From the NCBI GenBank assembly GCA_964016885.1, contig OZ024741.1:54560001-54624000 (forward strand): a DNA stretch of 64,000 bases, written 5' to 3'. The DNA is from Eledone cirrhosa. Its lineage: Eukaryota. The position numbers and the translations under genes are program-made. Shown here one piece after another: positions 1 to 7,800 of the stretch. The notes under the pieces were generated by a model that saw only the letters and a list, made by a program, of their open reading frames with translations, did not search any database and was not told where the DNA came from. Numbering within the stretch: position 1 is the first letter of the stretch; each line of letters begins with the position of its first letter.

Positions 1-3000
1 CCTCCTCCTCTTTCCTTCTCCTCCTTCAAGTTTGACCTGTGTGTAATTCTTTTCTCGCGCAGTCTTGACCGAGCTGGTATGGAATTTTTTTTCTCTCTCT
101 CTTTCGTCTGTGACTTCACAAAACTAGCGTTTACCGATTTCGCAGACCAGACCACCTTATCTTCTTCTTCTTCTTCTTCTTCTTCTTCTTCTTCTTCTTC
201 TTCTTCTTCTTCTTCTTCCTCTTCTCTCCTTTCTCTGTGTCTCTCTCTCTCTCTTTTTTCCCCCCGTCAAACTTGGGCGAAATTCTTTCCTTGCTCACAT
301 TTCTACCAGGTTCGATGGTCTTTCGTCTCTTGTTCACGATTTCGCAGAGTTTATATTCATAGAGATCTGGGACTTGTCTATTTCTACTCACTTTCCGTTG
401 CTTAAACCCTTTTTGTTGTTACTCTAGCGTCCCCCTTTATTTACGTGTCCCAACGACTTTTTTTAGCCGTTGTTCGCACCAACCTGAGGCATAAGGCCCT
501 TAAAGCGATGAAATGCCGAGGACGGTTGGAGGGTCACTGATGAAGGACTCACTTTTTCATATGTATCCCATTTGCAACGCCGCAGCTCCATTATTATCAT
601 CATATTTACACATATTACTTTTCCATGCTGCCTGTCTGTCTGTTCCTTGTATCTTTACCACTTCTAGCAGTCTCTCTCCCTCTCTGTTACCCTCTCCTCA
701 ACTTTCACTCACTCATTCTCTGTCACTACCTCTCCTCCTCCTCCTTCAAGTTTGACCTGTGTGTAATTCTTTTCTCGCGCAGTCTTGGCCGAGCTGGTAT
801 GGAATTTTTTTTTCTCTCTCTCTTTCGTCTGTGACTTCACAAAACTTGCGTTTACCGATTTCGCAGACCAGACCACCTTATCTTCTTCTTCTTCTTCTTC
901 TTCTTCTTCTTCTTCTTCTTCTTCTTCTTCTTCTTCCTCTTCTCTCCTTTCTCTGTGTCTCTCTCTCTCTCTTTTTTCCCCCCGTCAAACTTGGGCGAAA
1001 TTCTTTCCTTGCTCACATTTCTACCAGGTTCGATGGTCTTTCGTCTCTTGTTCACGATTTCACAGAGTTTATATTCATAGAGATCTGGGAGTTGTCTATT
1101 TCTACTCACTTTCCGTTGCTTAAACCCTTTTTGTTGTTACTCTAGCGTCCCCCTTTATTTACGTGTCCCAACGATTTTTTTTAGCCGTTGTTCGCACCAA
1201 CCTGAGGCATATGGCCCTTAAAGCGATGAAATGCCGAGGACGGTTGGAGGGTCACTGATGAAGGACTCACTTTTTCATATGTATCCCATTTGCAACGCCG
1301 CAGCTCCATTATTATCATCATATTTACACATATTAATTTTCCATGCTGCCTGTCTGTCTGTTCCTTGTATCTTTACCACTTCTAGCAGTCTCTCTCCCTC
1401 TCTGTTACCCTCTCCTCAACTTTCACTCACTCATTCTCTGTCACTACCTCTCCTCCTCCTCTTTCCTCCTCCTCCTTCAAGTTTGACCTGTGTGTAATTC
1501 TTTTCTCGCGCAGCCTTGACCGAGCTGGTATGGAATTTTTTTTTCTCTCTCTCTTTCGTCTGTGACTTCACAAAACTTGCGTTTACCGATTTCGCAGACC
1601 AGACCACCTTATCTTCTTCTTCTTCTTCTTCTTCTTCTTCTTCTTCTTCTTCTTCTTCTTCCTCTTCTCTCCTTTCTCTGTGTCTCTCTCTCTCTCTTTT
1701 TTCCCCCCGTCAAACTTGGGCGAAATTCTTTCCTTGCTCACATTTCTACCAGGTTCGATGGTCTTTCGTCTCTTGTTCACGATTTCACAGAGTTTATATT
1801 CATAGAGATCTGGGACTTGTCTATTTCTACTCACTTTCCGTTGCTTAAACCCTTTTTGTTGTTACTCTAGCGTCCCCCTTTATTTACGTGTCCCAACGAC
1901 TTTTTTTAGCCGTTGTTCGCACCAACCTGAGGCATATGGCCCTTAAAGCGATGAAATGCCGAGGACGGTTGGAGGGTCACTGATGAAGGACTCACTTTTT
2001 CATATGTATCCCATTTGCAACGCCGCAGCTCCATTATTATCATCATATTTACACATATTACTTTTCCATGCTGCCTGTCTGTCTGTTCCTTGTATCTTTA
2101 CCACTTCTAGCAGTCTCTCTCCCTCTCTGTTACCCTCTCCTCAACTTTCACTCACTCATTCTCTGTCACTACCTCTCCTCCTCCTCTTTCCTCCTCCTCC
2201 TTCAAGTTTGACCTGTGTGTAATTCTTTTCTCGCGCAGCCTTGACCGAGCTGGTATGGAATTTTTTTTTCTCTCTCTCTTTCGTCTGTGACTTCACAAAA
2301 CTTGCGTTTACCGATTTCGCAGACCAGACCACCTTATCTTCTTCTTCTTCTTCTTCTTCTTCTTCTTCTTCTTCTTCTTTCCTTTCTCTGTGTCTATCTC
2401 TCTCTCTTTTTCCCCCCGTCAAACTTGGGCGAAATTCTTTCCTTGCTCACATTTCTACCAGGTTCGATGGTCTTTCGTCTCTTGTTCACGATTTCACAGA
2501 GTTTATATTCATAGAGATCTGGGACTTGTCTATTTCTACTCACTTTCCGTTGCTTAAACCCTTTTTGTTGTTACTCTAGCGTCCCCCTTTATTTACGTGT
2601 CCCAACGACTTTTTTTAGCCGTTGTTCGCACCAACCTGAGGCATATGGCCCTTAAAGCGATGAAATGCCGAAGACGGTTGGAGGGTCACTGATGAAGGAC
2701 TCACTTTTTCATATGTATCCCATTTGCAACGCCGCAGCTCCATTATTATCATCATATTTACACATATTACTTTTCCATGCTGCCTGTCTGTCTGTTCCTT
2801 GTATCTTTACCACTTCTAGCAGTCTCTCTCCCTCTCTGTTACCCTCTCCTCAACTTTCACTCACTCATTCTCTGTCACTACCTCTCCTCCTCCTCCTTCA
2901 AGTTTGACCTGTGTGTAATTCTTTTCTCGCGCAGTCTTGGCCGAGCTGGTATGGAATTTTTTTTTCTCTCTCTCTTTCGTCTGTGACTTCACAAAACTTG

Positions 3001-7794: not shown

Positions 7795-7800
<6 letters not shown>
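1..7800 (+). repeat. Tandem array of ~720-bp units (11 visible; continues off the left edge), each with a variable (TTC)n tract and a hammerhead-like core
   Basis: Near-identical units. The CTGATGA marker recurs at 537, 1255, 1980, 2689, 3410, 4135, 4864, 5589, 6309, 7021 and 7777 (TTGATGA there); periods 709-756 bp, varying mainly in TTC/CCT tracts. The array ends at (AT)n. Confidence 0.97.
1192..1262 (+). ncRNA. Non-circularly permuted hammerhead ribozyme with K-turn (representative copy; one per array unit)
   Basis: GGCAU-A (1206-1211) pairs with GAA-AUGCC (1228-1235) as helix III. UGGCCCU (1212-1218) pairs with AGGGUCA (1248-1254) as helix I, directly followed by CUGAUGA (1255-1261). CCAAC-CU-GA / GAG-GA-CG-GUUGG forms a K-turn. 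Confidence 0.75.

Follow-up and report, generated by a model that had tools for sequence, protein, structure and literature searches.

The repeat at the start of the 64,000-nt stretch of Eledone cirrhosa DNA analyzed here (the window) is very probably a non-autonomous retrozyme mobilized by a Penelope-like element (PLE), carrying a predicted type-SGC hammerhead, a predicted kink-turn (k-turn) in an extended stem III, and a 3′ module akin to Naiad PLE 3′ ends. The ~720-bp array reported in the initial annotation is real. It is built of a noncoding, pyrimidine-rich unit of ~725 nt with one predicted hammerhead per unit and, with 20 kb of upstream DNA added, comprises 30 head-to-tail copies over 21.3 kb (−13526 to 7806 in window coordinates); it starts 13.5 kb upstream of the window, which holds 11 of the 30 copies, the 3′ third of the array (1..7806, + strand). 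Our motif search returned exactly the 11 predicted cuts proposed earlier (after 493, 1211, 1936, 2645, 3366, 4091, 4820, 5545, 6265, 6977, and 7733), and their spacing of 709 to 756 nt agrees with the monomers of ~710 to 760 nt suggested there. An example predicted monomer runs from cut to cut at 1212..1936 (+). Units vary in length through their (CUU)n, (CU)n, and (CCU)n tracts, all of which are present in this monomer. Frames in the array are microsatellite read-throughs rather than genes, and the unit is loosely paired (−129.5 kcal/mol, z −2.85).

The array begins mid-unit, at unit position 635 (counted from the cut), preceded by a short (TA)n tract, and ends at unit position 73, where it runs into an (AT)n target microsatellite (7799..8412, no strand assigned). 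Its termination at (AT)n had been recognized correctly, but the end lies 73 nt past the last cut and 23 nt past CUGAUGA instead of ~15 nt past the core. The hammerhead core is kept in 10 of the 11 window copies. Stem mismatches occur in the copies cut at 493 and 4091, and the last copy, which lies with the array 3′ end at 7718..7806 (+), carries a C3-to-U change plus two further changes, so self-cleavage at 7733 is doubtful. Unit differences amount to 6.1 per 622 columns within the 30-mer and 16.9 in comparisons with other loci. Units that are not neighbors share sequence variants, as unequal exchange would produce. Together, these observations suggest a single founder and later growth of the 30-mer by exchange at the DNA level.

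The conserved blocks of the ribozyme stand in the order S-G-C, that is, cleavage site, GAAA, and CUGAUGA. Because no circular permutation of the hammerhead (types I to III) gives this order, we assign the motif to the non-circularly permuted type-SGC hammerheads, with predicted catalysis; the type I ribozymes offered as analogues in the initial annotation do not describe it. In the copy cut at 1211 (all features on the + strand), stem III pairs 1206-1210 with 1231-1235 (5 bp), stem I pairs 1212-1218 with 1248-1254 (7 bp), and the two helices cross, as in the SGC topology. Block S (1206..1218) is made up of the 5′ strand of stem III, the cleavage nucleotide at 1211 (AUA), and the 5′ strand of stem I. 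A linker (1219-1221) leads into block G (together 1219..1235), with a stem II strand at 1222-1227, GAAA at 1228-1231, and the 3′ strand of stem III, and block C (1248..1267) contains the 3′ strand of stem I, CUGAUGA at 1255-1261, and the second stem II strand at 1262-1267. The sequence thus has CUGAnGA, GAAA, and a UH cleavage site between stems I and III, as a hammerhead should. Stem II consists of one core-proximal pair, a G/A-rich internal loop, and then one or two pairs; with A-U rather than G-C at the core, it falls outside the published SGC descriptor when compared by eye. The interaction helix of SGC hammerheads, in which stems I and II are joined at their free ends, is absent on inspection, and the bases before stem I pair instead in the covarying NC helix of the k-turn. 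Just upstream of the ribozyme lies a U-loop hairpin (1169..1190, +) that is kept in all 13 subfamily copies aligned.

Nested folding of the motif predicts hairpins that compete with this structure, and the motif is not exceptionally stable (z −0.09 to −1.23). Rfam gave zero matches at gathering score in the window and no ribozyme at an E value of ≤10 in 1100-1940. A canonical hammerhead of types I to III was rejected on the grounds that GAAA is missing from the required place. HDV-like, twister, pistol, and box C/D readings, judged by eye against consensus sequences, were dropped, with Rfam blank as well, and a Pol III A/B-box in the unit was dropped by eye for its overlong spacing and a B-like word that is unconserved in the aligned units.

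Stem III is extended by a 3-nt bulge, tandem G·A and A·G pairs, a C·U pair, and a 6-bp NC helix (1197-1202 with 1242-1247) that runs straight into stem I. This is the layout of a k-turn, with a 3-nt bulge followed by G·A and A·G between two helices. The nonbulged strand (1197..1205, +) comprises NC helix 1197-1202, 3n at 1203, and G2n-A1n at 1204-1205, and the bulged strand (1236..1247, +) comprises the bulge at 1236-1238, G1b-A2b at 1239-1240, 3b at 1241, and NC helix 1242-1247. Among the matches listed for a pattern that left GA free, GA follows the bulge in 98 of 100 by an eye count. The 3-nt bulge, tandem G·A/A·G, C:G at −1b:−1n, and non-Watson-Crick 3b·3n are shared with the standard kink-turn as given in the available portion of Huang et al. 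2021 (PMC8191799), whereas the present one is predicted and lies within stem III of a natural hammerhead. According to the same portion, C:G at −1b:−1n and C at 3b, both found here, favor ion-induced (Mg2+) folding, and we infer that the motif kinks. A kink could fold the chain back and thereby bring the distal ends of stems III and I together; Eckert et al. 2023 (PMC10085705, portion available) flagged as unexplained a related case in which helix ends lying far apart are joined by a link of zero length.

The predicted fold is supported by covariation. Fetched loci yielded 290 rows (overlapping loci repeat copies), from which an upstream-anchor filter removed 31; the remaining 259 formed 19 clusters. 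From these, 15 representatives were picked by hand, with two junction chimeras and three mutated single copies excluded, three copies swapped, and subfamily B added. Across the representatives, 14 of the 21 pairs proposed show changes in both partners (0/500 shuffles; at most 6 in slid controls), and 91.7% of 315 cells are paired compared to 79.0% in shuffles (0/500) and 31 to 47% in slid controls. Both kinds of control are flattering, since the structure was worked out from these same 15 sequences, which are related to one another. Two-sided changes occur at 5 of 6 pairs of the NC helix, 5 of 7 of stem I, and 1 of 5 of stem III, which is 100% paired. The core-proximal stem II pair is A-U in six representatives, U-A in five, U-G in three, and C-G in one. 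The outer two stem II pairs are 76.7% paired, with subfamilies B and C one column out of register, and the count of further pair types shows no excess over shuffles (220/500). Invariant in the 15 representatives are the core except position 7, the UAA linker, and both k-turn G·A pairs, while the bulge and 3b·3n (C·U, U·U, U·G, A·A) vary. At the cleavage position only A and C occur, with G absent, across subfamilies whose units are only about 52 to 58% alike.

We searched the 3.0-Gb genome with four patterns, each constrained at some positions of the GAAA and CUGAnGA blocks and nowhere else, and obtained 3,516, 6,639, 989, and 793 matches, compared to 0, 0, 7, and 63 for the reversed patterns; the far smaller reversed counts argue against chance. 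Since the patterns are mutually exclusive, their counts add up to about 11,900 related dispersed motifs, the cleavage block having been checked for part of them. Two other pattern counts stood at chance level (2 versus 3 in the control, 11 versus 12), and single loci from these were judged by their stems or translation. Units of the related families are 470 to 817 nt long. A sister-subfamily array (G000:C1:43918171-43924215) has at least 9 copies at ~720- to 810-nt spacing. Family D is a second, more distant SGC family with units of 753 to 817 nt that are about 45% alike; it is without the k-turn, and its stem II begins with G-C, G-C at the core. It was seen at L022:1275-1350 (+) and also at L226, L230, L234, and L261. 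A six-order descriptor applied to a set of loci from this genome found type I and SGC only. The same repeat variants are present in DNA contigs of run X2, and a near-identical copy is present in run X5, which bears another organism label. The SGC stem test gave no passes among 1 and 4 viral loci and the 80 flank-bearing of at least 120 metagenome loci.

The repeat is not confined to one locus: genome-wide mapping placed its 86-nt motif at 553 candidate sites, of which the best 40 of 553 scored 100% identical. The loci examined are mostly 1 to 4 units long, and many insertions hold a single ribozyme. The earlier description as retrozyme-like is supported, while "satellite" does not suit a family that is chiefly a dispersed mobile element. 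Insertion ends were compared over 48 rows of subfamilies A and B, four of which were dropped because the alignment stops inside continuing units. Among the remaining 44, the 3′ end lies at +72/73 from the cut in 35 and at +119/122 in 9, and 43 run into (AT)n. All five inverted pairs with both ends measured combine one short with one long end. In the copy cut at 1211, the usual end (cut +73) and the ~48-nt tail of inverted partners (to cut +122) correspond to 1284..1333 (+); a short motif in the tail is kept in 9 of 9 units aligned. The 5′ ends vary freely, as in 5′ truncation. A fixed 3′ end, 5′ truncation, partial tandems, an inverted tailed copy, and a microsatellite target together form the pattern of PLE mobilization, which the initial annotation had surmised. 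Every insertion spans an intact cut site, from which we deduce that copying started either from circular RNA or from a multimer that had not been cut. RNA run X1 (contigs, 0.04 share) contained two pieces of the repeat and no match over the ribozyme; both pieces are short, of low identity, and outside the ribozyme, and so leave transcription unsupported.

We propose that a transcript across at least two units would cut itself once per unit, after the AUA triplet, and that the ~725-nt monomer would be circularized by a host ligase of the RtcB type, as in animal retrozymes. A PLE reverse transcriptase/GIY-YIG protein would then nick (AT)n, prime 73 nt downstream of the cut site, and copy back across the cut for a variable distance, which could yield partial tandems, 5′ truncations, and inverted tailed copies. 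The 30-mer would have been enlarged later by DNA-level duplication.

The 3′ module probably links the repeat to Naiads, which in the available portion of Craig et al. 2021 (PMC8557442) are described as PLEs with a (TA)n target, partial tandems, an inverted 5′ copy, and a tail, and as lacking canonical hammerheads, with only "HHR_core" or "HHR_half_core" matches. Eight Naiads there, including Naiad_Ovul and Naiad_Esco, have the "half core", with the second half on either side. By eye, the Octopus consensi Naiad_Ovul and Naiad_Obim in File S5 of that paper end in an SGC motif plus k-turn (5-bp stem III, 6-bp stem I, 3-nt bulge, tandem GA, U·U, and 5-bp NC helix), preceded by a U-loop hairpin similar to that at 1169..1190. 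Like Naiads, the unit inserts in (TA)n, forms partial tandems, and leaves an inverted 5′ copy and a tail, and by eye it has an end motif like that of the Octopus consensi; in contrast to them, it is without an open reading frame, and its tail is ~48 nt rather than 30 to 40 nt (PMC8557442, portion available).

Among the File S5 matches listed, Naiad consensi hold 10 SGC motifs (including the two from Octopus) and 6 CSG motifs by eye, a tally made without script or shuffle control. It covered places 19-48 of 62 for CUGAUGA, 3-23 of 23 for CUGACGA, and, for each of the two remaining words, places 3-12 (of 43 and of 25, respectively), and line breaks hide some places. Further SGC places are 28, 29, 30, 31, 37, and 42 (CUGAUGA) and 5 and 6 ("ctgagga"); CSG places are 34 and 35 (CUGAUGA), 6, 7, and 8 ("ctgacga"), and 7 ("ctgagga"). 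Several others, such as 26, 43, and the CCCCUGACGA group, gave no clear order by eye. Parts 16-19 of the file contain Naiad consensi with CCCCUGA(C/A)GA and a short hairpin-forming stretch that by eye fit neither SGC nor CSG and possibly represent another rearranged core. From these comparisons, non-circularly permuted hammerheads are probably more than an oddity of environmental RNA and serve Naiads throughout the animals as their ribozymes. The order would be SGC in the cephalopod, cnidarian, and ostracod-section consensi and CSG in the nematode section, and in the present genome the k-turn-braced SGC form would have spread to ~12,000 copies in non-autonomous retrozymes.

In the Eledone genome, 6 of 11 RT motif matches translate to decayed Naiad-like frames. 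Two of 26 Naiad-like loci (L362 and L383) have SGC-order remnants downstream on the same strand, and the other 24 have none. Both remnants show a 7-bp stem I, a 5-bp stem III, and one core defect each, with stems compensated relative to each other and a spacing that differs from that of the unit's motif. Lone decayed motifs resembling the Naiad_Ovul 3′ end were seen at L345 (G000:C1:229903714) and L346 (G000:C3:282599647), with a k-turn-like helix, stem I intact, stem III broken, and no RT motif seen upstream.

The present source of the mobilizing enzyme is the point on which a rival reading comes closest. Our search of the genome found no intact Naiad. The Naiad-like copies recovered are heavily decayed and full of stops, whereas the repeat has many copies without a single difference over 86 nt; another PLE may therefore be driving it at present. 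Under this alternative, to which we give not quite an even chance, the origin and ribozyme are unchanged and a C-terminal-EN PLE (Neptune-, Poseidon-, or Hydra-type) now acts in trans at (AT)n. Long open RT plus GIY-YIG frames of 844 to 1,096 aa exist in the genome (L327 to L329), and the available portion of PMC8557442 describes cephalopod Naiads as long inactive and lists Hydra-1_Obim as (TA)n-targeting. The unit's 3′ module, however, resembles Naiad ends, and the hammerheads beside the C-terminal-EN PLEs recovered by the GIY-YIG search are mostly type I; the two SGC copies near such frames (L334 and L338) look like separate repeat insertions.

The other alternatives touch on the ribozyme itself. 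That the fold is kept for protein binding or RT recognition (for example, the k-turn with an L7Ae-family protein), with the young subfamily cleaving poorly or never, would accord with the atypical stem II, the competing folds, and the intact cut site in all insertions, which uncut multimers explain equally well; we consider it unlikely, given that the catalytic core is invariant and the cleavage nucleotide is A or C in subfamilies only about 52 to 58% alike. Less plausible still is a double or trans hammerhead, in which the blocks act in canonical order between neighboring units or molecules and no permuted fold forms. Tandem units would permit this, and dimeric cleavage was reportedly found for PLE hammerheads by Lunse et al. 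in 2017, but the covarying NC helix and 3-nt linker bind the blocks of one copy together, and many insertions have a single ribozyme, as Naiad consensi have one copy. Least credible is a DNA satellite amplified without an RNA step, with the motif an inherited relic. The 30-mer variants common to non-adjacent units speak for it, and it holds for the growth of the 30-mer only; for the family it is contradicted by the 553 candidate places, which in the loci examined mostly comprise 1 to 4 units, by the constant 3′ end within (AT)n, and by the inverted copies.

The window also contains other elements. Motifs resembling the canonical type I hammerheads of PLEs, in which stem III is palindromic, lie at 11287 (+), 10710 (−), 22726 (−), 8586 (−), and 10237 (+), in inverted arrangements beside (AT)n, and Rfam is silent on them. 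Decayed PLE-like RT/GIY-YIG regions of three different types are found at 23660-25830 (−), which is broken by (AT)n and (AAT)n tracts, 46611-47582 (−), and 61774-63583 (+). We take two sets of regions, at 12337-15468 (+), 33841-36461 (+), and 55488-57309 (−) and at 27594-32285 (−), 36941-39175 (−), and 50323-55117 (+), to be decayed non-LTR retrotransposons. They belong to two or more kinds, of which one presumably has an APE-like endonuclease and a gag-like ORF. A (TAC)n microsatellite of 830 nt occupies 41737-42566. Elsewhere in the genome, a 2.94-kb ribozyme spacing at L292 and L293 was considered as an autonomous partner and rejected, being an antisense PLE insertion: at L292:2240-4830 and L293, a PLE flanked on either end by a motif resembling a type I hammerhead lies antisense inside an SGC repeat, and the 12 letters around CUGAUGA in its motif are the same as in subfamily A. 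This pair of loci probably arose by segmental duplication.

Type-SGC hammerheads cleave at 0.007 to 0.19 per minute in the available portion of Eckert et al. 2023 (PMC10085705), where the rearranged examples come from assembled metatranscriptomes, RefSeq 85 was also searched, one weak GCS case is bacterial, and the descriptor needs G10.1-C11.1 plus two to six further stem II pairs. The present motif has the same S-G-C order, full core, stems I and III, and 3-nt stem I-II linker as HRIMA-1 of that study. It differs in being genomic, in an animal mobile repeat, rather than on metatranscriptome contigs; in a k-turn helix that enters stem I directly, where HRIMA-1 has a stem I-II interaction helix; and in a stem II of one pair plus G/A internal loop, with A-U, U-A, or G-C/G·U at the core. 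With metazoan non-LTR retrozymes, as presented in the available portions of Cervera and de la Pena 2020 (PMC7229834) and Li et al. 2026 (10.64898/2026.07.22.740005), the repeat shares dispersed, noncoding tandem units with one hammerhead each, dimers to long multimers, GC below 50%, and a PLE link. Those retrozymes are defined by type I and have mostly 150- to 450-nt, highly self-paired units, in contrast to the ~725-nt, loosely paired unit here, which with its SGC order falls outside the type I definition; a type I search would miss its ribozyme. The main text of Li et al. 2026 (10.64898/2026.07.22.740005), in the portion available, uses type I models and does not mention cephalopods, pseudoknots, or permuted ribozymes. 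Our literature search, which left most subscription papers outside, found no published union of retrozyme, SGC, and k-turn, no SGC in animal genomes, and no permuted hammerheads in Naiads. Retrozymes, SGC hammerheads, and k-turns are each known separately.

Non-circularly permuted ribozymes would thereby extend from metatranscriptome contigs to animal chromosomes, in thousands of copies. That Naiads were said to thrive without canonical hammerheads has been read as a hint that PLEs can dispense with hammerheads, which would then be their parasites (PMC8557442, portion available). If the motifs described here are active, Naiads do have hammerheads, and searches limited to types I to III undercount retrozymes. 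Through its k-turn, a permuted hammerhead may be able to close the gap flagged by Eckert et al.; the k-turn would also offer a handle for control by L7Ae-family proteins and for structural work.
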